Positions 1 through 10,423 of a DNA stretch of 12,088 nt are shown piece by piece. This DNA is from a virus (taxonomy: Monodnaviria; Loebvirae; Hofneiviricota; Faserviricetes; Tubulavirales; Inoviridae), in IMG/VR virus record IMGVR_UViG_2529292720_000001. One strand, 5' to 3'. Position numbers and translations under genes: made by a program. Under the pieces are notes generated by a model that was not told where the DNA came from, ran no database searches, and worked only from the letters and a program-made list of their open reading frames with translations. Each line of letters starts with the position of its first letter. Position 1 is the stretch's first letter.

Positions 1-1455
1 TTATTGATTCGACTCATATGCACTCCATTCATCGCATACATGGGAAAAGGTTGATTTCAGGGCTTCGTTATCAATCACAATTCGCTGAAGATTGGCCGTA
101 TTAGCCTGCTGAGATAGAAATCTTTTAGCGTAAAGATCAGGCATATGGCTATTGTGACTCCAACCGCCAAGTAGCCGTAATTCATCCTTGGCTTCATCCA
201 TCAATCCAACGATAGAAAAGTCTATGGCTGCCAAGTGTGAGTTGGCCTTAATTTTTTGAAGTTTATCACGATAAATACGTTGAAGTGTTAAATAAGCCCA
301 AGTATGCCGCGTTATATGAGGCGAGATGCTTTCAATGGCATCATAATATTCATCTTTTTTATATTCAGGATACTGCACACTCATAATGTCATCAATACGG
401 GTAAAGATATCATAGACTGCATGGTATGACAGTGGCGGATGTAGTCTTTGGGTGGAAGTGAACAGAAAACTATGGGAGGCTTGAGGGCGGATTTTATGGA
501 TATATATATTTAGAAAATGAAAGTCCAGTTTATCTAATGCCAGCACCCGGTTTGCATAAACATTTTTTAATGAAGGCAATCTTTTTCGTTGATCCGAAAC
601 GTCGTCATCTACTGTGGTCACAATCAGGCTGAACTGATCCCCTCGGAGATTTGGTTTGATCGAATGACACTCCAAAAGCAGTAATTCACTGACACGCAAT
701 CCGTAATTTAAAAGCAATCTGCAAATCAGAAAATTACGTAGCTGGATTTCACCAGCGGGGAAGGGATTGAGTGGGTTTTTCTTTGAAATTGAACCGGGTG
801 TAATGATTTGGTAAAAAGCCATGACCATCTCAGCAGTCAGACTTCGAAAGCGTTTATGGGTCGTGCCATTGTTCATCTGACGAGAATGGGTAAGAGTACG
901 GAATTCTGCCTTATGTATCGATAAACGTCCCGTTAACTGCGTGGCAAGTCGTGTAAGCTCTTTAGGCGTGCCATCTATATATCTCGGCGAGATATACGTG
1001 TTAATCAAATATCTGATAAAACGAATAACCGAATGTACATGCCTGATATTTGTACAACGTTGAGGCGTGGTCTGCGTAGTAGACCTTATGGTTAACGCTG
1101 GTACATATAAATGCGTATTTTCCAGATAATGAAAAAAGGCTGTAAGTTCATCAATGGCAATCAATGGATTGTGGTTCGAGGAATAGAAACTGAAGCAAAA
1201 AGTCACACCATGTTTCTGGTGCCAGAATTCATAGAAAAACTTGAGCGCTTGAAGTGAAGCGGATTGCGTGGCTGATGAACGCAAAGCAAGATGGTCGATA
1301 AGATATATTAACGGATATAAAAGCGGCTGGCGCGTGTGAGTATCCATCAGTGCCCATAAACGCTGCCGTTGGTTGATATTGAGTTGTGTAAGTATGAACA
1401 CGCGGCACTTAACCTTATCAATGGTGTGGATATGAACAAAGTAACCGACAAACAT
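1..1455 (-). CDS. tyrosine recombinase / phage-type integrase (large, ~484-488 aa), start uncertain
   Basis: Long minus-strand ORF ending with TAA at 1-3. The translation carries the tyrosine-recombinase catalytic signature in canonical order: box I Arg (NYGLRVSELLLL), box II H-x-x-R-H (SPHITRHTWAY), then LGGWSHNSHMPDLYAKRF with the putative nucleophile Tyr. The ORF-track start at 1467 is a TTG; the first ATG is at 1453-1455 with GCAGGA 4 nt upstream; another in-frame ATG lies at 1345-1347. The gene lies outside the dif-bounded prophage. Confidence 0.7.
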   Translation of the reverse strand: MFVGYFVHIHTIDKVKCRVFILTQLNINQRQRLWALMDTHTRQPLLYPLIYLIDHLALRSSATQSASLQALKFFYEFWHQKHGVTFCFSFYSSNHNPLIAIDELTAFFHYLENTHLYVPALTIRSTTQTTPQRCTNIRHVHSVIRFIRYLINTYISPRYIDGTPKELTRLATQLTGRLSIHKAEFRTLTHSRQMNNGTTHKRFRSLTAEMVMAFYQIITPGSISKKNPLNPFPAGEIQLRNFLICRLLLNYGLRVSELLLLECHSIKPNLRGDQFSLIVTTVDDDVSDQRKRLPSLKNVYANRVLALDKLDFHFLNIYIHKIRPQASHSFLFTSTQRLHPPLSYHAVYDIFTRIDDIMSVQYPEYKKDEYYDAIESISPHITRHTWAYLTLQRIYRDKLQKIKANSHLAAIDFSIVGLMDEAKDELRLLGGWSHNSHMPDLYAKRFLSQQANTANLQRIVIDNEALKSTFSHVCDEWSAYESNQ

Positions 1456-1546
1456 AACGTCCTGCAAGAAGAAGATAGAGGGGTAGGTAAGTGTATGATT
1501 AATCGTATCCTGTGGCCGGTTATGAACTAAATGACCGACGGACTAA

Positions 1547-1574
1547 ATTTAACATAATATACATTATGCGCACC
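1547..1574 (-). other. dif: chromosomal dif site (XerC/XerD recombination site), exact 28-bp consensus
   Basis: The plus strand reads ATTTAACATAATATACATTATGCGCACC; its reverse complement is GGTGCGCATAA-TGTATA-TTATGTTAAAT, i.e. XerC arm, 6-bp central region and XerD arm of E. coli dif as I recall it, with no mismatch. Confidence 0.9.
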
Positions 1575-1785
1575 AATGGTAAGGATGGCAGAAACTGGTT
1601 GGAATCGTTGACACTGGGCGTCGACTGGTTACTATCGGCAATGATTCAAAATCATCCGTTTCTCCAAACGAATCAGAATCGAATGTCTGTCAACAGTAAG
1701 TGAACAAGCCTAACCTCATGACCTCACCAATCAGGCCTGTTCATCATCGTTACTAAGCAATGAATTACAGAAGGCATGAGCATTT

Positions 1786-2031
1786 ATGGACTTATCATAT
1801 CTAGCTGAAATGACGATATCAGAGGAAACACAGTTCTTGACTGTTTTTGAGCAGCAACTAGAACATGATGTCGGTGAAGCAGCCCGAGCCTGTCTTCTTC
1901 GTGGCGTCCCTATTTATTACGCTGAAAAAAATACGCCAGAAGGATGTGTCATTAAAGAGTATCCCGATGGTCGCAAGAAGCTGGTTAGTTTTATGACTGG
2001 CACTGAAAAAGTAGTTAAGATTAAAGTCTGA
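1786..2031 (+). CDS. hypothetical small acidic protein (81 aa)
   Basis: ORF-track ORF with ATG start. The Shine-Dalgarno is weak (AAGG about 11 nt upstream). The protein has no TM segment and no motif I recognise. It lies just inside the left att end of the prophage, convergent with the 82-aa ORF. Confidence 0.35.
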   Translation: MDLSYLAEMTISEETQFLTVFEQQLEHDVGEAARACLLRGVPIYYAEKNTPEGCVIKEYPDGRKKLVSFMTGTEKVVKIKV

Positions 2032-2181
2032 TACTTCCCTAGCCGCGCCGCAATTAACTCCAAAGAAAAATAGAGTACTGTTGCGGCTTGGCCAACGCCA
2101 GACAGCAACAAAAACAAGTTTTGTTACTGCCCGGCGTTTACGATAATTCCGTCAGCATGGAGTTTTAGCGGCTAAAAATGT

Positions 2182-2430
2182 TCACCACCACCATGCAAAC
2201 GGCTTGTTGCTGACCGGAAATGCGATGCCGTCAGCGTCACGACCACGTACAACCTGATTGAGAAGCTTTCTGACTTCACGGCGCTCTGGCCGGGTCATCA
2301 TCATATTGCGATACCAGGACGGCGATTTATCAAACCATCTGGCACAACTGGCAAAATGTGAACCTACACGACGATAAGACTTAAGGCGGCCACTGGGAAG
2401 TCGGTCACGCGCCTTATTTTTTACAGACAT
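2182..2430 (-). CDS. hypothetical small basic protein (82 aa, Arg/Lys-rich, C-terminal WWW)
   Basis: Minus-strand ORF with a good SD (AGAGGA, 6-nt spacer, ATG at 2430), located 88 nt downstream of the secretin gene in the same orientation. It is strongly basic (many R/K), consistent with a nucleic-acid-binding protein. Local GC looks higher than the rest of the prophage (eyeball estimate about 52%). Confidence 0.5.
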   Translation of the reverse strand: MSVKNKARDRLPSGRLKSYRRVGSHFASCARWFDKSPSWYRNMMMTRPERREVRKLLNQVVRGRDADGIAFPVSNKPFAWWW

Positions 2431-2518
2431 AATAAATCCTCTAAGTAACTGAATACCTAGAAGATGTCGTACTGTTCATACCCCATTAAAGTTAACGCCA
2501 TAATAAAAATCCATACAA

Positions 2519-3763
2519 TCAGTTCAGGTTGTCCCGGAACAGTTCACCGCTCCTCGCGGCGCTGCGGGGCGTCGCCCTGCTCCGGTCAACCTTTCTGACC
2601 TGAAGCATCACCATAATATCAGTCTTGTTGCTTTCACTGGTACGGGAACCGAAGACGCTCCAGCCGGAACTGGCCTTACTGTCTTTCTGTTCAGCAAGGC
2701 CACCAAGCAAAATAATATCACCATCTGCAAGGCTGACTTCGGTTGTTACATCACGCTTGATAAGGGTTGGCGAGTTATTGACGCCGGTTTCAGTGGTCAC
2801 AAAGTTGGAAAGCTGCTGCTGAATCTTGAGATCCATTGTCCGACTTTTGATTGATGGCGTCACGTTAAATAAAACACCGCTGGAACGATATTCAACGGAT
2901 TGCGTGGTCGTATTGTTATTCACCGTAACACTGCCCAGTACTGGCACATCAGAGCCGACTGAAAAAGACGCTGAGGCATTATTTTTTACCCGTAGTCGTG
3001 GCGCACTGACAACAGTAAAACGACTGTCGGTTTTCAGCAGATTGAAAATGGCATCAATGGAGCCGGTTCGAATATTGATAAAATTATCCAGTCCGGCAGC
3101 ACCTACTGAAATATTGAATTTATCAGACAAGATTTTAGCCGCTAAAAGAATACCGGAGCCGTCAGACTGCGAGGTCTGAACCTCAAAAACATAACCAGAA
3201 ACAACCACTTCATCACTCATCGTATCCAGCGAAGTGACCAGTGTTTTCAGGATGGCGATGTCCTCTTTCGTACCATAATAAACCAGAATATCACCGGTTC
3301 GATTGATGTAGTTGCTTGCCCCTGATGAACCTTTTAGCGAATCGTCAGAAATCACGGCTCCACTGTTATTGAAGGAGCCTGAAACGTAGCCGCCAAGAAT
3401 ATCAGACAGGTAGGCAACAGAACGGTACTGAGGCGTATAAGTCCATGTATAACGTGGCTTAACCGGCTCTTTCGGCGTATAGGGCGCGATAAAATCAACA
3501 CCCTTTTTCGTCCATATTCGAATGTTCATATTGCCAAGATAACGGGTTACAAATTCCCGTTCATCAATATCAGGTGTTAACCTGAATGTAATCATTCGTT
3601 CATCATTAACAAGCTGTGGATCTAGCATATACGGGACTTTAAGCACCTCACTATAAATAAGAGAAATAGCCTCCGGTAGCTTGACTTTATTTAATTCAAG
3701 CTCTGACCCTGCGAAAGCACATGAAGAAAATAGTAGCGTTAATGCGAGTAAAATCTTTTTCAT
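2519..3763 (-). CDS. filamentous phage pIV-like secretin (outer membrane export channel)
   Basis: 414 aa with an N-terminal signal peptide (MKKILLALTLLFSSCAFAG). The C-terminal half has the secretin-domain character (VVSAPRLRVKNNASASFSVGSDVPV...GGLAEQKDSK). Its ATG overlaps the stop of the upstream Zot-like gene (TAATG at 3761-3765), and it occupies the last position of the morphogenesis operon as gene IV does in Ff phages. Confidence 0.85.
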   Translation of the reverse strand: MKKILLALTLLFSSCAFAGSELELNKVKLPEAISLIYSEVLKVPYMLDPQLVNDERMITFRLTPDIDEREFVTRYLGNMNIRIWTKKGVDFIAPYTPKEPVKPRYTWTYTPQYRSVAYLSDILGGYVSGSFNNSGAVISDDSLKGSSGASNYINRTGDILVYYGTKEDIAILKTLVTSLDTMSDEVVVSGYVFEVQTSQSDGSGILLAAKILSDKFNISVGAAGLDNFINIRTGSIDAIFNLLKTDSRFTVVSAPRLRVKNNASASFSVGSDVPVLGSVTVNNNTTTQSVEYRSSGVLFNVTPSIKSRTMDLKIQQQLSNFVTTETGVNNSPTLIKRDVTTEVSLADGDIILLGGLAEQKDSKASSGWSVFGSRTSESNKTDIMVMLQVRKVDRSRATPRSAARSGELFRDNLN

Positions 3764-4788
3764 TATTTTTTCCCCGTATAAAGCGTCACACGCTCACCAT
3801 CAATAATTCCGCTCATCAACATCCCTTTATAATTAAAACTGGATGCAGGAACGGCACGCAAAACACCGGCACCGTTAACAAGAATCACAAACGCCCTGCC
3901 TTCACTGGTCATTCTCCCTGATATACGCCACTCGGTTGAAAGTGACGGTTCAGCTGGTTCTGAGGGAGTATCTGGTGCAGGAGTAGCAGCGGAAGAACGA
4001 AACATGGCCGCATCACGTACATCTGTTGTAGCCAAATCTGGCGAGGGATCGCTTCGGCCAAACGTGCTGAAAAATGAGTAAATCAGCCAGCCTGACCCGA
4101 TAAACATCAATGGAAAAAGCACAAGAAAGAACCTGACTTTGCCAGAATTCCAGATGCTCTGGCGTTTATCTGTCTGCTTTTCATTACCGTTATTTCCTTC
4201 ATAGCTTTTATAAAGTTCAAAAATATCAGGGTTATATTTATTGCGATAACTGGTGACGAGGTTGCTTTTATAGATTTTGTGGCCTGAATATACGTCAATG
4301 CAGTAATGATTATTCAGGCCCAACGCTTTCAGCTTGCGCATCCGGTAAGTTGTTTCTATTTTGTCTTTCAGAAAGCGAGCAATATTAGAAAGTGACTGAT
4401 TTACAATAACCAAATCACAGCTAATACCCGTTTCAGGGTGCGTAAAATGACGATGTTCAGCAATAAATGATTTCTTCTCAGCCGTCATATCCTTATCGCT
4501 ACCGAAGATTCGCCATGCTTCATCAATAACAATTAAATCACCAAACTGGCAAAAGCTCCCTTCCCCACCTTTAAAAGGAAAGAAATCTGCTTTAAGTACA
4601 TCATCATTATCCACAACAATAATTTCTCCCGTTGCATCAGGATAACGTTCGGTGATTTTATCTTTTTGTAAACCATAAATGTTCGTCACAACTCTCCGGC
4701 CGCTGGTAAATGCAGGAATAATGACATTGCAAACGGCTTCATAACTTTTTCCTGAGCCGGGTATGCCAATATATGCAGAAATAGCCAT
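3763..4788 (-). CDS. Zot-like / pI-like phage assembly ATPase
   Basis: 341 aa with an N-terminal Walker A motif (MAISAYIGIPGSGKSYEAV), comparable to the M13 pI N-terminus (GKLGSGKT), and a Walker B-like LIVIDEAW. A central TM segment (FFLVLFPLMFIGSGWLIYSFF) is followed by a Pro/Ser/Thr-rich C-terminal region. It sits between the pVI-like gene and the secretin gene. Confidence 0.9.
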   Translation of the reverse strand: MAISAYIGIPGSGKSYEAVCNVIIPAFTSGRRVVTNIYGLQKDKITERYPDATGEIIVVDNDDVLKADFFPFKGGEGSFCQFGDLIVIDEAWRIFGSDKDMTAEKKSFIAEHRHFTHPETGISCDLVIVNQSLSNIARFLKDKIETTYRMRKLKALGLNNHYCIDVYSGHKIYKSNLVTSYRNKYNPDIFELYKSYEGNNGNEKQTDKRQSIWNSGKVRFFLVLFPLMFIGSGWLIYSFFSTFGRSDPSPDLATTDVRDAAMFRSSAATPAPDTPSEPAEPSLSTEWRISGRMTSEGRAFVILVNGAGVLRAVPASSFNYKGMLMSGIIDGERVTLYTGKK

Positions 4789-4791
4789 AAC

Positions 4792-5079
4792 TCACCCTAT
4801 AACAGGAATACGTCGAATAATAAAACGAGTAGCCATTGAGGAGATAATCATACTAATCCCCTGTGGTAATTTACTCAGGTTAATGAAGTACCAGAATCCG
4901 TCTGATAAATTGGCAAACAGCGATGAGAGATTGCTTGAATCTGGCAGTAACTCAACAAGGATTTCAACGAAGCCCTGGACTACAAAATACAGCGCAAAGA
5001 ATACGAAGAATTTAATAATCAATGACCGGAATACAAAACCTAACAAAGTATTTAATGCACTAATCAGAATCCCAAACAT
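4792..5079 (-). CDS. pVI-like minor coat protein (small hydrophobic virion protein)
   Basis: 95 aa, very hydrophobic with multiple TM-like segments, placed between the pIII-like gene and the pI gene with 3-nt and 12-nt gaps. This position and size class match gene VI of Ff phages. Confidence 0.6.
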   Translation of the reverse strand: MFGILISALNTLLGFVFRSLIIKFFVFFALYFVVQGFVEILVELLPDSSNLSSLFANLSDGFWYFINLSKLPQGISMIISSMATRFIIRRIPVIG

Positions 5080-5091
5080 AGTTGCACTCCT

Positions 5092-6804
5092 TTAGGCACT
5101 CAGAATAATACGGAGCGCAACAAATCCCCATATAATCAGAAATATGGTTTCTACGGCGCTTCTGTTCTGCTCAATTAACGGACAATGGGAGTCAATTCTG
5201 TACTGGTGATTAAACACGCTGAATTCAACAACGGGGCAGGATGCTGAACGAGAGCCGATGTTAAATTCGTTTGTAAAAGGCAACAAGTTAATAATTGGCG
5301 TTAAAATATCTCTTGCCGTTGGCGTTTCTTCAAGCTCAGGCTCTTTTACACCGGGATCTTCTCCCAAATCTATATTGCCATTATTTCCAGTGTCAGATCC
5401 TGAGTTGTTATTAATGGTAATATCAATATTGACGTCAGCCCCTGCACTGTCAGATACAGGTGAAAGCATATCTAATAACGTTGGAGATAGCCTAAGTTCC
5501 GACATCGCAGAAGTTACTTCAGCCGGTGAAACCTCTTTAAACGGTAAGCCGTTATAATCGGCATTAACGGCAGCTTCAGACCACAGCTCGTTAATCATGT
5601 CGGCAAGAAGTGCTGGCGATACACTAACACTATCAAGATACTCCAGATAATCAATCATGGACTCAATATTTCCGGCCTCCAGTACTTCCGTCATGGCTTT
5701 ATATTTGGTATTGGTCCAGATAGTAAGCTCACTCTTTTCATCAATATCTTTTGCGGTGTAATCCTCTTTTTCAGGAACGGCGCAAATCGTCGAATATCCA
5801 CCATTTGACTGATTAGTCGTTTTACAAGGCGTGTTGTGATACTGATATTGCTTTCCTGCTGTTAAATAAGCAACGCTGTAATACATGGGAAGCCCTGCTA
5901 CATTTTCATACATGGGAATACCTGCGGGAAATGAAGATGCGGCCGGGTTGCTATACAAGTGTGTAATCTCAGGTATTTCATAAAATGAGGAAGGATAAGT
6001 AAACTTATAATTCTGTTCAGTAAAGGATACATCTCCATTACTGTTGACAACTTTATTCGTCACAGTGCGTTCAAAATTCGTTAGTGTTTCAGTATAAGTA
6101 CGCGAGTTATAGTCATTAAGATAATTTCTGGCAATTTCAGTTGGATTATCACCATAGTAATAAATTAGCTCTTTCGAATCCTGATAATAATAAAGCGCAT
6201 TATCTGGCGTGGAATATCCTGTTTCAACACCTACAACTGGAGAACCCGCATCCACATTATTACGACTAACATGAAGGATTACCGGACTTAATTCCTGTGG
6301 TTCAAAATTAACGGTTATCGTCTTACTTTCACCACTTTGACCACTGTACGTTACTTCATATAAATTATCGGAAATCTTTTTACCGTTAGTCATTACCATT
6401 ACCGAGCCGTCAGATGAACTCAAAGAAGACGGAACAAAAGATGATACAGCAGCAGCAATACCCGCCCACGTTGCAACACCGCTCATTTTGTATGATGAGG
6501 CAGCAGGCAAGTATTCGGCAGCATTAGCCGCAGCGCGGCCAACAAAAACACGGGTTGCTGTAAGCTGTGATGCCGTATAAATCGCATCATTGGCAGCAAA
6601 GCGACGAACAAGCACCCGGCCAACGACTTTAGGAATAACAGCCCGCGCAGCCACTGCTGCAATTGCTGGTACAAATGAATATGAATATCGGGGAAAGGAA
6701 ACCCAGAGAAAGGAAAAAATAAAGGAATAAACCGTCAGCCTCTTAGCCCAAGAATAACGACATAAGCTGAGACGATCCCCCATAAAAGGGAACCCAATTT
6801 CCAT
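5092..6804 (-). CDS. pIII-like adsorption / minor coat protein (start uncertain)
   Basis: 570-aa ORF directly after the major coat gene and its terminator. It has a Gly/Asn/Ser/Asp-rich linker (NNNSGSDTGNNGNIDLGEDPG) and a C-terminal hydrophobic anchor (AVETIFLIIWGFVALRIILSA), as pIII has. There is an SD (GGAG, 8-nt spacer) before the ATG at 6804. The first ~110 aa are Ala/Val-rich and atypical, so the true start or N-terminal domain organisation is uncertain. Confidence 0.7.
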   Translation of the reverse strand: MEIGFPFMGDRLSLCRYSWAKRLTVYSFIFSFLWVSFPRYSYSFVPAIAAVAARAVIPKVVGRVLVRRFAANDAIYTASQLTATRVFVGRAAANAAEYLPAASSYKMSGVATWAGIAAAVSSFVPSSLSSSDGSVMVMTNGKKISDNLYEVTYSGQSGESKTITVNFEPQELSPVILHVSRNNVDAGSPVVGVETGYSTPDNALYYYQDSKELIYYYGDNPTEIARNYLNDYNSRTYTETLTNFERTVTNKVVNSNGDVSFTEQNYKFTYPSSFYEIPEITHLYSNPAASSFPAGIPMYENVAGLPMYYSVAYLTAGKQYQYHNTPCKTTNQSNGGYSTICAVPEKEDYTAKDIDEKSELTIWTNTKYKAMTEVLEAGNIESMIDYLEYLDSVSVSPALLADMINELWSEAAVNADYNGLPFKEVSPAEVTSAMSELRLSPTLLDMLSPVSDSAGADVNIDITINNNSGSDTGNNGNIDLGEDPGVKEPELEETPTARDILTPIINLLPFTNEFNIGSRSASCPVVEFSVFNHQYRIDSHCPLIEQNRSAVETIFLIIWGFVALRIILSA

Positions 6805-6827
6805 AATTCAATCTCCATAATAACCTC

Positions 6828-6855
6828 AAGTAAAACGGGCGATATTGCATCGCCC
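6828..6855 (-). terminator. intrinsic terminator after the major coat protein gene
   Basis: On the minus strand a 7-bp GC-rich stem (GGGCGAT/ATCGCCC, plus 6837-6855) with a 5-nt loop is followed by GUUUUA. It lies 14 nt downstream of the coat gene stop, analogous to the terminator after gene VIII in Ff phages. Confidence 0.55.
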
Positions 6856-6868
6856 ATGAATAATGAAT

Positions 6869-7102
6869 TTATGCGGATTTAACGGTACGCAATACCCAGC
6901 GAACGCCAGCGACACCGGCATAAAGTGTTACCAGTGAAGCAGCAACGGCCATAATCGCAACCAGAACTGTACTGAAATCAATGCTGTTCGTCAGCGGCGA
7001 TAAATCAACACCACTTGATGCCGCTCCTTCTGCAGCGAAAGTCGCGCCAGAAACAGCCATTAATGCAGGTACAGCCAGAAAACTAACGATTTTTTTAAAC
7101 AT
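6869..7102 (-). CDS. major coat protein (pVIII-like)
   Basis: 77 aa. Signal peptide MFKKIVSFLAVPALMAVSGATFA with an A-x-A cleavage site; the predicted mature protein begins AEGAASSG (M13 mature pVIII begins AEGDDP). It has an amphipathic N-terminus, a hydrophobic helix and a basic C-terminus (RWVLRTVKSA). SD is GGAG with an 8-nt spacer. Confidence 0.85.
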   Translation of the reverse strand: MFKKIVSFLAVPALMAVSGATFAAEGAASSGVDLSPLTNSIDFSTVLVAIMAVAASLVTLYAGVAGVRWVLRTVKSA

Positions 7103-7136
7103 AACTCTATCTCCATTACATTTTAAAGGTTCGCAT

Positions 7137-7388
7137 TCAAGCAGTACGAACCATCTTTATTACCTGTCCCACACCTACAGAAAAAAGCCAGAGCAGCAGG
7201 ACAGAGCCAAAACCTAATGTCCAGTAATTTCCTATTGCAGAATAATCAATTTGATGAAATGGTTCAGAACGTACCATTATTGCCTGACATTCTTTTGCAT
7301 TGTTCGCATTACATAAATAACCTTCAATACGGTAACCATTTTCAGGAATATGATTATCAAACTGAATATCGAAACCTGATGTATCCAT
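7137..7388 (-). CDS. small membrane protein in the pVII/pIX position (possible minor coat protein)
   Basis: 83-aa ORF tightly packed between the ssb-like and major coat genes (2-nt gap upstream), with a C-terminal hydrophobic segment (WTLGFGSVLLLWLFSVGVGQVI). It is larger than Ff pVII/pIX, and an internal Met start is possible. Confidence 0.45.
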   Translation of the reverse strand: MDTSGFDIQFDNHIPENGYRIEGYLCNANNAKECQAIMVRSEPFHQIDYSAIGNYWTLGFGSVLLLWLFSVGVGQVIKMVRTA

Positions 7389-7390
7389 AA

Positions 7391-7708
7391 TCAGCCTTTT
7401 ATTTCAGTAATGCCGCCATCTGATGAAATGTTATAAGTTACTCCTTCCCTCCCCTCCATTGACCAGACGCGAACATATACAGGTATCTGGACTAACTTAC
7501 CGATAAAATTATTTGCCTGATTCATTACACCGGCATTAACAAGAGCCTGAGATACACGAATAATAATCTGGTCTTGCTTAGTGCCACCAAAACCATCAGG
7601 AATCTCTAAGCCAACACCAATTTCATTATAGTATCCCTGACCATTGACCTTATTACGCTGGCGAGCACCAAGCATTTTACCTTTTACAAAAAGACCATAA
7701 TTAGACAT
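7391..7708 (-). CDS. ssDNA-binding protein (pV-like), putative
   Basis: 105-aa ORF immediately downstream of rep with a strong SD (AAGGAGAG, ATG at 7708). Position and size fit gene V; no sequence motif I can name with certainty. Confidence 0.5.
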   Translation of the reverse strand: MSNYGLFVKGKMLGARQRNKVNGQGYYNEIGVGLEIPDGFGGTKQDQIIIRVSQALVNAGVMNQANNFIGKLVQIPVYVRVWSMEGREGVTYNISSDGGITEIKG

Positions 7709-7719
7709 ATCACTCTCCT

Positions 7720-8772
7720 TTAATGCCAGTTACTGGCATGTGAAATACGGTTATAATCGAAAATTAAACCTTTCTCATAAACCCATGATGGAATTTTGGC
7801 TGGTTTGGCTTCAAGAGTACGAACCAACGGAACAACGTTATTAGAATCCGGTGACTCACAATAAAAGTTAATATCTATTCCGAAAGAAAGTAATTCTTTA
7901 CGGTGTCGGTAGAATGTAGGTTTCGGTAACATCTCTTTCATGTTCGCGCCCTGCTTCCACAATAAATATGTAGACTGTATTTTTCTTGGGAGATTAATTA
8001 TTTTTTCATCAGTTAATATGGTATTTTGATTCATTTCTATTCTCCCTACATAGTCAGAGAATAATTTATTGGGCGTCTCAATATTCCAGCTATTACCAAG
8101 CGTAAGATTCAAATCAATTAATTCAGTTGTTCTTAATGTTAATTCAATGCGTAATTTATCTTTTGACCAGTCCAGTAAACCAGCTTTAACGAATTCGTCT
8201 GCCATCTGGTGCCCTTTTTTGCCAGATGTATGCTCATCATATTTTGAATAAAATTTCAGGCTCCAACGACGGGAGTTTTTCCCTAAGTAAACAGTGCCAC
8301 CTTTACCACAGGCGCGACCGTGGCGAGTTTTAGCTTTAAATTCTGCGGCATATAGCCATGCGCGGACATTTTCTAATGTTGACAATGAATACATATAGTT
8401 GATATCAATACGCGAGATCTTAAATTGCCCTGCCATTACCTGTCGATAGGATGAAAGATCATGAGGAATATGCAGTAATGCCAATATTCTGGCATAAGCT
8501 GTTAATACTAACCCTTGCAAATCATCGGAACCGATAACAGAGTGACCTTGCAAAAACTTTGACGGATTGCCGTCAATATAGAGATGTGTTGCCCGACCTT
8601 CGCCATCAGATCCAACAGATCTTACTTTCATAGTGGATTCATACGAACCGCGAACAGTCAACCGTTTTACTGTTTCCCACTCCACTGCACCGTCAGCATC
8701 AACGCTGACGACACTACCAGCCGGTAATGGTCGGTGTATGCAAGGTAGGATCCCGGTAAACCAGTCAATCAT
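7720..8772 (-). CDS. rolling-circle replication initiation protein (pII / RstA-like, phage CRI family)
   Basis: 350 aa with the N-terminal MIDWFTG motif typical of filamentous-phage replication initiators. SD is GAGG with a 6-nt spacer. It is the first gene of the minus-strand operon and is divergent from the HTH repressor, as rstA/rstR are in CTXphi-like phages. Confidence 0.8.
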   Translation of the reverse strand: MIDWFTGILPCIHRPLPAGSVVSVDADGAVEWETVKRLTVRGSYESTMKVRSVGSDGEGRATHLYIDGNPSKFLQGHSVIGSDDLQGLVLTAYARILALLHIPHDLSSYRQVMAGQFKISRIDINYMYSLSTLENVRAWLYAAEFKAKTRHGRACGKGGTVYLGKNSRRWSLKFYSKYDEHTSGKKGHQMADEFVKAGLLDWSKDKLRIELTLRTTELIDLNLTLGNSWNIETPNKLFSDYVGRIEMNQNTILTDEKIINLPRKIQSTYLLWKQGANMKEMLPKPTFYRHRKELLSFGIDINFYCESPDSNNVVPLVRTLEAKPAKIPSWVYEKGLIFDYNRISHASNWH

Positions 8773-8939
8773 GTATCGCCTCAGAGAACAATTTTGTGAC
8801 CAGAAAGCCTGTCAAGAGCTTATTAGTACCAATTCAGTCACACAAATGTACAACCCAAGATCTTACCTCTCAAGTGATTTTGTACTGGATAAGTGACATA
8901 TTTGTTCTTTTGAAATGGAGCAAAAAAGTAGGATATAGA
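8773..8939. promoter_or_regulatory. divergent control region between rep and repressor (candidate promoters/operators, possibly replication origin)
   Basis: 167-bp intergenic region. On the minus strand there is a perfect -35 hexamer TTGACA (plus 8810-8815), about 40 nt upstream of the rep ATG, with only a weak -10 candidate. GTGAC/GTCAC half-sites recur (TGTGAC at 8795-8800, GTCACA at 8837-8842, GTGACA at 8893-8898), and TTTGT(G/A)AC-like motifs recur at about 8792, 8846 and 8878. Confidence 0.45.
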
Positions 8940-9392
8940 ATGAGCAACAACTTCAACAGTAATGGCTACCCGGAAGAAATGGCAGAAGACATAGACTTAC
9001 AGCGGGCAGAAAGGATAAAAAAAGCGATCCTAAGCAAATTCACATACGAAAGGATGGAAGAACTGTCTGGCATCAACATTGGCACACTGAAACGGATCGC
9101 AAACGCACAGAGGGATGCGAAAATCAGTGAGCTGGAAAAAATTGCTGAAATCACTCAGACAGACATATTTGAACTGATTTTTGGCTCCAGTAGCAGTGAT
9201 ATCTACGATTCCAGCAAACGCTTCTTTGAGACGAGAAGTAAAGATGCGGCTCAGGCGGCTCAATTCATCATCTACAATCTTCGTACCCTTGATGATGAGG
9301 ACATCCTTTGTTTGGGGAGGGTTTCGAGTGCCTTGCAAACAGCAACAACATCAAGAAAATGGGATGAGCTTTTCGGGAAGAAGAAAGGCTGA
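8940..9392 (+). CDS. XRE-family helix-turn-helix transcriptional regulator (phage repressor candidate)
   Basis: ATG at 8940 preceded by AGGA (6-7 nt spacer); the ORF-track start at 8796 is an unsupported upstream extension. 150 aa with a predicted HTH (MEELSGINIGTLKRIANAQRDAKISELEKIAEITQTDIFEL). Divergent from rep. Confidence 0.75.
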   Translation: MSNNFNSNGYPEEMAEDIDLQRAERIKKAILSKFTYERMEELSGINIGTLKRIANAQRDAKISELEKIAEITQTDIFELIFGSSSSDIYDSSKRFFETRSKDAAQAAQFIIYNLRTLDDEDILCLGRVSSALQTATTSRKWDELFGKKKG

Positions 9393-9438
9393 GTCTCAGA
9401 AATGAGACAAACGTGCAGTATTACCAACACTGCACGTT
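9393..9438 (+). repeat. two adjacent stem-loops right after the repressor stop (6-bp GTCTCA/TGAGAC hairpin, then a perfect 10-bp inverted repeat AACGTGCAGT-N9-ACTGCACGTT)
   Basis: Read directly from the sequence (9393-9408 and 9410-9438). No immediate U-tract follows; ATTTTT lies about 13 nt downstream. It could be a terminator or attenuator, or a phage cis element. Confidence 0.5.
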
Positions 9439-9476
9439 CTGGATTGAGCGATTTTTAAACACCAGAAAAAGGGTAA

Positions 9477-9875
9477 ATGATGAACAAAACAGTGTATGTA
9501 CCAAGCTACTTCCAGCCTATCTACAAAGAAGTAACCATCAAAGTTCCTACCGGAAACACAAAACGATTCCTGGGTCTCATCGACATTGAAGAAAAAATCC
9601 GAAAAAGAGAAGTTATTCAGGATGGCTGGTCTGATTGCCAGATTGACGGGGAAAGACTCAATGAAGATGTTGGTCGAGCCATTAATAAACTTAATCGGGA
9701 AGGGTATGAGGTTATTTCAATAACCCCTGCTACCTCAGGAAGCTGGGCTTATAAATATAAACAAAACAGTATTCGTAATGGAAACGGTGATGGCAGTTAT
9801 GGATATGGTTACGGTTATTCATACACCGAAGGCGTTATGATTCTGGCAAAGAAAATTGAGAAAGAGGACGTCTGA
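9477..9875 (+). CDS. hypothetical soluble protein (131-132 aa) with a Gly/Tyr-rich low-complexity insert; first gene of the accessory operon
   Basis: ORF with tandem ATGs at 9477 and 9480; AAGGG lies 3 and 6 nt upstream, so 9480 is the more likely start. It contains NGNGDGSYGYGYGYSYTEG. The 60-nt sample counted just downstream (9878-9937, start of the next gene) is about 33% GC. The stop is 2 nt before the next gene start. Confidence 0.6.
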   Translation: MMNKTVYVPSYFQPIYKEVTIKVPTGNTKRFLGLIDIEEKIRKREVIQDGWSDCQIDGERLNEDVGRAINKLNREGYEVISITPATSGSWAYKYKQNSIRNGNGDGSYGYGYGYSYTEGVMILAKKIEKEDV

Positions 9876-9877
9876 TA

Positions 9878-10240
9878 ATGGATTTTATCCGTAAAACTTT
9901 GGGTGGATTAAAAGCAAGTTATTATATCCGTCACTTCGTTTTTGGTGCATTAATTTCAACTTTCTTTATTTACATGTCAATGCAAAATCCTGGAGGGGTG
10001 AAGGTTGAAAATATAATTTTCTTTTTTATCAATGCGTTACTCTACCCTTACGCAAGGTTTGTATATGAGCAAATCATTGGGTTCATCATGGGTGAAAATG
10101 TCTTTTTCATCAACGTCATAGTGATGCTAACTGCCAAGATAATTACGATGTGTTTATGCTGGATATTTTCAGTATTCATAGCGCCAGTTGGACTGATATA
10201 TCTCTACTATTATCATTCAAAAGCTGATAAACAATTATAG
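9878..10240 (+). CDS. hypothetical small integral membrane protein (120 aa, 3-4 predicted TM helices)
   Basis: Translationally coupled to the upstream ORF (TGATAATG). Hydrophobic stretches: IRHFVFGALISTFFIYMSM, NIIFFFINALLYPYARFVY, VFFINVIVMLTAKIITMCLCWIFSVFIAPVGLIYLYYY. AT-rich. Confidence 0.6.
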   Translation: MDFIRKTLGGLKASYYIRHFVFGALISTFFIYMSMQNPGGVKVENIIFFFINALLYPYARFVYEQIIGFIMGENVFFINVIVMLTAKIITMCLCWIFSVFIAPVGLIYLYYYHSKADKQL

Positions 10241-10251
10241 AGGAAAATAAT

Positions 10252-10320
10252 ATGAGCATGGAAACAGGGGTTGCTATTATTATCTTGCTTGTGATTGTTG
10301 GTAAACTTATAGGACTTTAA
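10252..10320 (+). CDS. candidate 22-aa hydrophobic micropeptide (MSMETGVAIIILLVIVGKLIGL), not in the ORF track
   Basis: ATG at 10252 preceded by AGGAAA with a 7-nt spacer, starting 12 nt after the stop of the membrane-protein gene. It encodes a single TM helix and has a TAA stop at 10318-10320. The bidirectional terminator follows about 40 nt downstream. Confidence 0.35.
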   Translation: MSMETGVAIIILLVIVGKLIGL

Positions 10321-10353
10321 CATAAAACTGGTTCGCACAATGACGTTATGTGT

Positions 10354-10394
10354 AAAAAGGCCGCTGCGGGAGACATTTTAGCAGCGACCTTTTC
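10354..10394. terminator. bidirectional intrinsic terminator between the prophage plus-strand operon and hipA
   Basis: 9-bp stem GGCCGCTGC / GCAGCGACC (10359-10367 and 10381-10389) with a 13-nt loop. On the minus-strand RNA every position pairs (one G-U wobble) and UUUUU follows (plus AAAAA at 10354-10358). On the plus-strand RNA there is one C-A mismatch, followed by UUUU (10390-10393). Confidence 0.6.
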
Positions 10395-10395
10395 A

Positions 10396-10423
10396 ACATA
10401 ACGAGTCGTACATTATGCGCACC
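10396..10423 (-). other. hybrid dif-like site (prophage-chromosome junction; XerC arm intact, central region and XerD side phage-derived)
   Basis: The minus strand reads GGTGCGCATAA-TGTACGACTCGTTATGT. The XerC arm is identical to dif and the central region shares its first 4 bp, but the XerD arm is replaced. A XerD-arm-like TTATGTTGAAA (8/11 match to TTATGTTAAAT) is displaced by 5 bp, giving an ~11-bp spacer. Confidence 0.8.

Follow-up and report, generated by a model that had tools for sequence, protein, structure and literature searches.

A recombinase gene beside dif

The DNA analysed here, called the window throughout, is a stretch of 12,088 nucleotides from the inovirus record IMGVR_UViG_2529292720_000001, and at its left end, outside the virus, it carries a gene for a tyrosine recombinase that adjoins an intact copy of dif, the chromosomal site used by XerC and XerD. 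This gene is in all likelihood ginA, the first gene of the ginABCD cassette of a GInt (a kind of genomic island), from a clade of GInts that attaches at chromosomal dif. The features on which the argument depends are these:

1..1401, minus strand: ginA, 466 aa from the GTG at 1401, stop codon at 1-3; probable first tyrosine recombinase gene of a GInt ginABCD cassette
1547..1574, minus strand: intact chromosomal dif, an exact 28-mer, the reverse complement of GGTGCGCATAATGTATATTATGTTAAAT
dif subsites, in plus-strand coordinates: XerD arm 1547-1557, central region 1558-1563, XerC arm 1564-1574
1547..1553, strand not assigned: ATTTAAC, outer 7 bp of the XerD arm, common to both E. coli island junctions; putative crossover region (attL core)
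1575..10423, strand not assigned: filamentous (Inovirus-type) prophage with a pII replication protein, a Zot-like protein and a secretin, from its open reading frames and the RefSeq annotation of identical DNA

A first-pass annotation of the window had described a tyrosine recombinase reading frame of about 485 aa and low GC content, ending 92 bp from an intact dif, transcribed away from it and lying outside the prophage, and all of this stands. At its longest the frame spans 1..1467 of the minus strand (488 aa from a TTG, in the list of open reading frames), and besides the TTG at 1467 and the GTG at 1401 it offers an in-frame ATG at 1455 (484 aa). The ATG is preceded by an AGGA Shine-Dalgarno motif and gives the version held as public-database entry P0001, while RefSeq starts the gene at the GTG in identical genomes (WP_001388361.1), with which the conserved N-terminus of the homologues, MFxLxQ, agrees. 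The gap to dif is 91 nt from the ATG and 145 nt from the GTG, and the XerD arm of dif faces ginA while the XerC arm faces right, toward the prophage that begins at 1575. The GC content is 41.1% in ginA and 47.5% in the neighbouring hipBA segment.

The catalytic arginine and tyrosine, whose presence the first-pass annotation had proposed to check, are found on alignment: R236, K279, R365, H366, W414 and Y424 (466-aa numbering) are the same in every sequence of two alignments, one of 22 sequences and one of 38, and H362 is invariant in one of these and nearly so in the other. Like Cre, GinA has a tryptophan where most relatives have the second histidine. Sequence profiles recognise the protein faintly. 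Pfam Phage_integrase scores 23 bits, under its cut-off of 27.1 bits, a single-sequence search of the sequences in the Protein Data Bank (PDB) gave no match, and a profile search of the PDB gave marginal matches to Xer and Int proteins alone. The recombinase fold is settled by a fold search, in which an AlphaFold2 model (mean predicted local distance difference test score 86) matched Cre, XerH, the Tn1549 integrase and XerA with E-values of 1e-7 to 1e-4 in Foldseek. By alignment and predicted structure, GinA is a genuine but divergent two-domain tyrosine recombinase. Membership of the XerC/XerD family was considered and rejected: the NCBIfam scores (XerA 34.6 against a cut-off of 220, XerC 18.7 against 335, XerD 14.6 against 330) are far under the cut-offs, and the gene is present in only about 2.5% of E. 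coli genomes.

The insertion lies within the XerD arm

The dif site of E. coli K-12 is flanked by the yneL pseudogene and hipA, and comparison of that region shows that K-12 has no recombinase gene there. The window matches K-12 only at 1547-1577 and from 10409 onward, and everything left of 1547 is foreign to K-12. The other end of the inserted DNA was found in strains TW10828 and H3, where it adjoins the yneL-side flank of K-12, and three sequences can be set side by side:

K-12 empty site: ...CACTCAGACATG ATTTAAC ATAATATACATTATGCGCACC...; in shorter form CAGACATG-ATTTAAC-ATAATATAC
Island far end (H3, TW10828): ...CACTCAGACATG ATTTAAC TTATGTTGA...; in shorter form CAGACATG-ATTTAAC-TTATGTTGA
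ginA end (window 1518-1574): ...GGTTATGAACTAAATGACCGACGGACTAA ATTTAAC ATAATATACATTATGCGCACC; in shorter form GACGGACTAA-ATTTAAC-ATAATATAC

The comparison shows a clean insertion in which homology with K-12 breaks within the XerD-binding arm (window 1546/1547), and since ATTTAAC is the outer 7 bp of that arm, the island sits inside dif itself. The window holds no tRNA or tmRNA gene; a P4-type or other tRNA-targeting integrase was rejected on this ground and on the position of the junction inside dif. The two junctions are unequal. The ginA-proximal one carries the perfect 28-mer dif, while the far one carries ATTTAACTTAT, which agrees with the XerD arm at 9/11 positions and is followed by no central region or XerC arm, reading ATTTAACTTAT-GTTGAG-TGCAAACTTGG. 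In H3 the repeat is accordingly 7 bp when perfect and 9/11 when extended. Four independent junctions have a far-end arm that differs from the native one at positions 1 and 4, counted from the inner (central-region) end, which places the exchange within the outer 7 bp.

Xer strand exchange takes place at the borders of the 6-bp central region, after which the XerD arm of the far end would be native. Read from the junction sequences, canonical Xer catalysis is excluded for the lineage represented by these far ends (lineage 1). This bears directly on the idea that the island behaves as an integrative mobile element exploiting Xer (IMEX), that is, that host XerC and XerD integrate it at dif and its own recombinases have no part in the choice or cutting of the site. 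The location at dif and the regeneration of an intact dif at one end are just as in IMEXs, a genuine Xer-dependent phage occupies the other side of the same dif, and in Enterobacter wuhouensis, where the whole 11-bp XerD arm is repeated, central-region exchange would be possible for that lineage. Yet the lineage 1 arm is altered at inner positions 1 and 4 with no XerC arm or dif-like centre beyond it, and IMEXs typically carry no recombinases while this island has a cassette of its own; we regard the IMEX account as very improbable.

The island is a GInt

Leftward from dif in TW10828 run genes of 466, 516, 788 and 144 aa, each overlapping or abutting the next, followed by cargo, part of which is a type II set resembling a cyclic-oligonucleotide-based anti-phage signalling system (CBASS), with nucleotidyltransferase, E1-like, JAB and HNH proteins. 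The same cassette, ginABCD, is present in H3, TC24 and VG1046-3E9 and keeps its gene order at more than 25 loci in other genera. The 516-aa GinB reaches 41.4 bits with Pfam Phage_integrase, over the 27.1 cut-off, and the 788-aa GinC has no Pfam assignment beyond a faint recombinase match (E=0.018), so that two catalytic tyrosine recombinases are joined in the cassette by a large protein related to recombinases and a small helical one. The islands range from 11.5 to more than 50 kb and are tripartite, with the cassette, the cargo and a short AT-rich far end; the one in H3 is a single clean element of 11,527 bp with type III CBASS cargo. Their cargoes include anti-phage systems (CBASS, Gabija-like and Avs4). 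In the window itself, the first 17 nt of ginB overlap the end of ginA, according to the annotation of TW10828 (L003; ginB 18467-20017, ginA 20001-21401):

1..17, minus strand: start of ginB, ATGAGTCGAATCAATAA, shared with the end of ginA; ginB continues leftward beyond the window

The defining arrangement of GInts is ginABCD, three tyrosine-recombinase-related genes and a small fourth one at one end of an island (PMC5385486), in the gene order found here, which is set out in PMC10214605 and differs from that of the SE and Tn554 families. We likewise reject an SE or Tn554 identity for the present element, as its order (two catalytic recombinases, a large protein without Pfam assignment, a small protein) is neither intA-tfp-intB-srap nor tnpA-tnpB-tnpC. 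In BLASTP comparisons with the GInt of E. coli Sakai (ECs_3512-3509), GinA matched at 28% identity with E=6e-17, GinB at 5e-5 and GinC at 2e-8, and identity to the Sakai proteins is about 20-28% overall. Besides this homology, the islands have the cassette at one end, catalytic GinA and GinB, and a tripartite body with short imperfect repeats.

Support also comes from the survey of Hochhauser et al. 2023 (PMC10121019), in which the hipA-ydeT interval is defence-island hotspot #20, occupied in 62/783 genomes, a rate that agrees with the carrier counts found here. The hotspot #20 islands of H3 (CBASS III, 12.5 kb) and S43 (CBASS II, 24 kb) are labelled GInt in that paper, by BLAST to the proteins of Bardaji et al. 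(PMC10121019); H3 holds an 89% allele of the window ginA, and S43 holds a second lineage described below. From the cassette order, the Sakai homology and these labels, the window element is a GInt, already published at the level of a catalogue.

Two side observations concern the make-up of these islands. The cassette is mosaic: between the loci L014, L015 and L035 and TW10828 (L003), identity rises from 54-56% in GinA through 66-77% in GinB and 88-92% in GinC to 95% in GinD, a gradient that points either to much faster divergence of the end-proximal recombinase and the terminal DNA or to an exchange of modules. In the TW10828 island region, ysgD-corA is present a second time, together with a 'chromate transporter' gene of 3.1 kb, between insertion sequence (IS) elements (L005 28666-33696); this DNA may be of chromosomal origin and captured by the island.

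The same junction recurs within E. coli

The stretch 1-1580 is present at >=80% coverage (that is, at least 80%) in 138/5426 complete E. coli genomes (~2.5%), always on the chromosome beside hipA, and K-12 has none of it; the gene is accessory and not conserved core chromosome. Alleles of ginA with 100%, ~95% and ~89% nucleotide identity all meet dif at the same base, as does a second E. coli lineage of 82 genomes (VG1046-3E9, with Gabija-like cargo, is an example). The terminal sequence of this second lineage also occurs in Enterobacter elements, whose GinA is ~56% identical to that of the window. In two genomes, islands stand in tandem, the ginA end of the older joined via ATTTAAC to the far end of the newer (L007 2020-2026, L008 12135-12151), which is the arrangement expected if each insertion regenerates its target. 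The older islands of such arrays, away from dif, are often decayed (L007, L008, L009 1041-5027), and the cargoes in tandem arrays differ (Gabija-like, type III CBASS, Avs4).

The association with dif extends to other genera

A profile-guided scan of one genome per species, covering 185,579 species, yielded 56 loci, for which 625 kb were fetched. At 40 of the 56, the exact XerD arm TTATGTTAAAT lies 125-270 bp upstream of ginA within a complete, species-typical dif, and the sequence turns foreign directly past the arm. These loci span more than 12 gammaproteobacterial genera, in which dif itself takes the form GGTGCGCATAA-TGTATA- in enterics, ATTTCGTATAA-TGTATA- in Acinetobacter, and further variants in Psychrobacter, Shewanella, Rheinheimera, Moraxella and Pseudoalteromonadaceae. 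In the 625 kb, 44 exact arms lie on the ginA strand and 1 on the other, against a chance expectation well below one per strand. Where the arm is missing, at 16 loci, the copy is truncated or the locus is a fragment at the end of a contig. A truncated ginA is common to ten Acinetobacter loci; four of these were inspected, and at three the island stops against TTATGACAATT, which resembles the XerD arm at 8/11 positions. The arrangement of dif and ginA seen at the 40 loci was also found in Yersinia intermedia, Pleionea litopenaei and four further Acinetobacter genomes. Where contigs permit, ginB, ginC and ginD follow ginA in order.

GinA identity within the dif-associated set falls to 31%. The GInt of Sakai is more distant (23-28%) and is located elsewhere, from which it follows that dif specificity marks a clade and not all GInts.

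Far ends in other genera are harder to find. A first motif pattern found none in the 56 loci, and a search with the exact arm found one, in Enterobacter wuhouensis, where the full 11-bp XerD arm is repeated.

This recurrence decides against an accidental origin, in which an ordinary phage- or P4-type integrase, or a Xer paralogue, would have come to lie beside dif through deletions or IS activity. The weak best matches of GinA in NCBIfam are indeed to Xer families, and IS elements and deletions do lie left of the gene in the nearest genomes, but the same base-precise junction is found in >200 E. coli genomes of several lineages and at 40 loci of other genera, and ginA is always first in a four-gene cassette. 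Differing host genera and cargoes exclude a single vertically inherited segment, the window has no tRNA, and the Xer-family scores fall far short of their cut-offs; an accident is, in our view, scarcely credible.

Terminal DNA between ginA and dif

The DNA between the recombinase gene and dif carries phased motifs, and one further motif lies within the gene:

1402..1546, strand not assigned: ginA-proximal terminal region, reaching from 1546, where the island ends, to the start of ginA, with phased GTTCAT boxes
1520..1527, minus strand: Box 1, GTTCATAA, with TTCAT beginning at a distance of 21 nt from the XerD arm end; candidate recombinase-binding site
1431..1438, minus strand: Box 2, GTTCATAT, with TTCAT at +111 from the XerD arm
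758..765, plus strand: octamer GGGAAGGG of the type of the FtsK-orienting polar sequences (KOPS), within ginA and directed toward dif, the FtsK-permissive orientation

The terminal region is kept in the 95% and 89% alleles and recurs as an island-end fragment in tandem arrays and plasmids. Across lineages the spacer between dif and ginA is poorly conserved, except for two TTCAT boxes: 41 of 42 island ends, from many genera, have TTCAT at +21/22, and 34/42 have a second at +108 to +113. In the window lineage a third copy of the box (1393-1400) overlaps the GTG start, and in the E. coli far ends GTTCA(T/C) occurs in inverted orientation some 20 nt away from the core. Such phasing makes the boxes candidate recombinase-binding sites. 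Apart from the GTTCAT boxes some 20 nt away, inspection by eye found no convincing inverted symmetry around the 7-bp core.

The KOPS-type sequence GGGNAGGG occurs at a conserved place in ginA in enterobacterial lineages, and among the parts of elements examined (L010-L063) 13 such octamers point toward dif and 2 away, counts that are small and not independent; KOPS directed at dif may matter for the loading of FtsK beside the XerD arm. On the minus strand of window 1554-1591 there are weak sigma-70-like matches directed toward ginA, whose -10 hexamers, TATTAT and CATAAT, lie inside dif and whose -35 hexamers fall in the DNA across the XerC arm. In the GInts of Bardaji et al., transcription enters ginA from outside the element (PMC5385486).

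A model for insertion at dif

The first-pass annotation had left two alternatives, a second mobile element to the left with its recombinase end at dif, or a recombinase acting on dif-proximal sequence, and these are parts of one answer. Intact relatives do carry an island of 11.5 to >50 kb headed by ginABCD, and the break in K-12 homology within the XerD arm, with ATTTAAC at both ends, is where its machinery would act. We propose that a circular form of the island, with the joint ...GACGGACTAA-ATTTAAC-TTATGTTGAG..., would recombine with the outer 7 bp of the XerD arm, in a reaction carried out by the island's GinA and GinB together with GinC and GinD, by analogy with the Pseudomonas GInts, in which all four gin genes are experimentally necessary for integration and excision (PMC5385486). 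Because only outer positions of the arm take part in the exchange, a perfect dif would be rebuilt at the ginA-proximal junction, such that dimer resolution would be kept and the site would stay available. XerCD should be unable to delete the island, since the far junction is a crippled arm without central region or XerC arm. New GInts would then stack on the XerD side, the newest nearest dif, as Xer-dependent phages stack on the XerC side.

Several observations weigh against this assignment or limit its reach. GinD has no similarity to Sakai GinD detectable by BLASTP, and the reference for homology is the Sakai GInt (Additional file 10 of PMC10214605). Neither the proteins nor the genomes of the dif-side GInts are among the GinC-GinD entries of Idola et al. 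in the part of that list that was searched. Catalysis by the Gin proteins, the circular intermediate, the independence from XerCD and the retained function of dif are inferred. Of the cassette, the window contains no more than ginA and 17 nt of ginB, and ETEC-2264 and 90-9280, whose DNA is identical with that of the window over 1-9426, have a truncated ginB and have lost ginC and ginD. The far end of one Acinetobacter element, of ~7.3 kb with ginABCD and a PhdYeFM-type antitoxin gene, is homologous to the E. coli far end up to ...AACATA(A/C) and then passes into native flank without a copy of GTTAAAT (L073-L076 17050-17120, L025 3120-3175, L077 230-290), and for this reason the rule of an identical 7-bp core is not general. 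The missing repeat may reflect core handling like that of Tn554 and SE elements, a tolerated mismatch or a later small deletion; a search of metagenomes for an empty Acinetobacter dif gave two matches, both only to the hybrid site of L025. Lastly, a 7-bp core cannot by itself explain the exclusive use of dif, and further recognition is needed: either the Gin proteins read the remaining arm and the centre, or XerD itself contributes.

The second of these options leads to a reading in which the Gin recombinases need XerD, bound to the arm in dif and to the arm in the island joint, as their partner or landmark. It would account for the fact that dif itself is the sole sequence conserved in all targets, the flank outside it varying by genus, and for the near-perfect (9/11) or, in Enterobacter wuhouensis, perfect (11/11) XerD arm in the island joint, as well as for an exclusivity to which 7 bp are too little; an element recombinase that partners host XerD has a precedent (PMC11014353). 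The exchange, though, maps to DNA that XerD covers, and bound XerD should hinder it rather than assist; the cassette already holds two catalytic recombinases, and we judge such a partnership quite unlikely. A wider reading would have a whole clade of GInts specialised on dif, which all gammaproteobacterial chromosomes have to keep, as a universal landing pad, and in its boldest form recognition would depend on arm-bound XerD or the FtsK/KOPS context; taken as a whole, we think this rather unlikely. The reading we prefer remains that of a GInt whose own proteins would direct it to dif.

The window copy and the prophage on the XerC side

As the first-pass annotation had surmised, dif in this strain is a junction between two mobile elements, the probable remnant of a GInt on its XerD side and the filamentous prophage on its XerC side. 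The whole window in one piece has no match in the E. coli genome collection, and the left-hand context of its ginA copy is taken from the two closest genomes, in which IS elements and deletions crowd the region left of the gene. Because the cassette is broken there, the window copy is probably immobile, and judged from these sequences it is most likely the relic of a once-mobile defence island with CBASS.

The prophage ends on the right in a hybrid dif-like site (XerC arm 10413-10423), followed by the hipA/hipB chromosomal flank. This end (10330-10423) has two dif-like sites in opposite orientation, GGTTCGCACAATGACGTTATGTGTAAAA at 10330-10357 and the one ending in the XerC arm at 10413-10423, with a GC-rich inverted repeat between them, a layout like that of the CTX-phi type of single-stranded attP. 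The phage pII-regulator module, present once in the window (7592-9426), occurs in three tandem copies in the closest genome, E. coli 90-9280 (L001 27720-33054), and the prophage array thus varies between otherwise identical strains.

Other elements were seen at the same site. Two Enterobacter genomes (L014 4779, L021 3025) have additional exact XerD arms on the XerC side of dif, 2-4 kb past it and paired with degenerate partners on the XerC side; they probably mark small IMEX-type elements at the same dif as a GInt. An IS of the ISNCY/ISKpn21 family stands directly on the XerC side of dif in TC24 (L007 13575-15080), and dif seems to attract IS elements as a third kind of visitor. About 50 large E. 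coli plasmids (pYPE10-190k-tetX4, L067 6001-6240, for example) hold 116 bp of the ginA-proximal end of a second-lineage GInt, continuing into the XerD arm, a hybrid centre TCCTCG, TTATATGTACC and then an ISNCY transposase; from its sequence this fragment looks like a chromosome-derived piece of island end and dif that moves with the IS.

Relation to known elements

The dif-side islands share with published GInts, which have also been called the Tn6571 subgroup of the Tn554 family (PMC8865565), ginABCD at one end with cargo after ginD, the gene order, similar sizes, site-specific integration, short imperfect flanking repeats and the lack of conjugation genes. They differ in their low identity to the Sakai proteins (about 20-28%, with GinD not detectably similar). 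The hotspot #20 GInts of H3 and S43 are the same elements as those found here, but that hotspot was defined by its flanking core genes, dif is never mentioned (0 occurrences), and no description is given of the attachment site, the junctions or the specificity for dif across genera (PMC10121019).

The IMEXs (CTX-phi, VGJ-phi, TLC-phi and the gonococcal genetic island) also lie at dif, regenerate a functional dif at one end and stack in arrays, but they have no recombinase and rely on XerCD exchange at the central region, whereas the GInt here has its own cassette, exchange in the outer arm and a far end that is not dif-like. With SE and Tn554 it has in common several recombinases, the absence of conjugation, site specificity, terminal imperfect inverted motifs and a 6-7-bp core, and the lack of a repeat at the Acinetobacter far end is reminiscent of their 'footprint' behaviour; the SE order is intA-tfp-intB-srap, however, Tn554 has no GinC-like protein, and neither is known to target dif. 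The XerC-like recombinase of Tn6022 (PMC11014353) is likewise a tyrosine recombinase of a mobile element whose site has a perfect XerD arm. It belongs to the Xer family (38% identical to XerC), needs host XerD and acts on a hybrid dif-like site of its own element, in contrast to GinA, which is not of the Xer family and whose element inserts into the chromosomal dif.

Neither dif nor Xer is mentioned in the papers on GInts, SEs and the hotspot, and a literature search for GInt, Tn6571 or multi-recombinase islands together with dif returned nothing relevant, although the literature searched was incomplete and the link may already be published. What was known is the GInt kind and hotspot #20; what is new here is a dif-specific GInt clade, found in many genera, that inserts in the XerD arm and restores the site.

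Significance

The result for the window alone is modest, a probably defunct remnant at a catalogued GInt locus, and the wider interest lies in the target. The dif site is essential, unique and nearly invariant across Gammaproteobacteria, and to our knowledge it has hitherto been recognised as a target only for elements that borrow XerCD. If the proposal is true, dif-targeting GInts explain why hipA-ydeT is a defence-island hotspot in E. coli and predict that the terminus of Klebsiella, Enterobacter, Yersinia, Acinetobacter, Psychrobacter and others has such a hotspot too, where defence islands could pile up on the XerD side. Recognition through arm-bound XerD or the FtsK/KOPS context, should it hold, would be a new exploitation of the Xer machinery without Xer catalysis, and islands that target dif would offer a portable, host-independent integration site for engineering.

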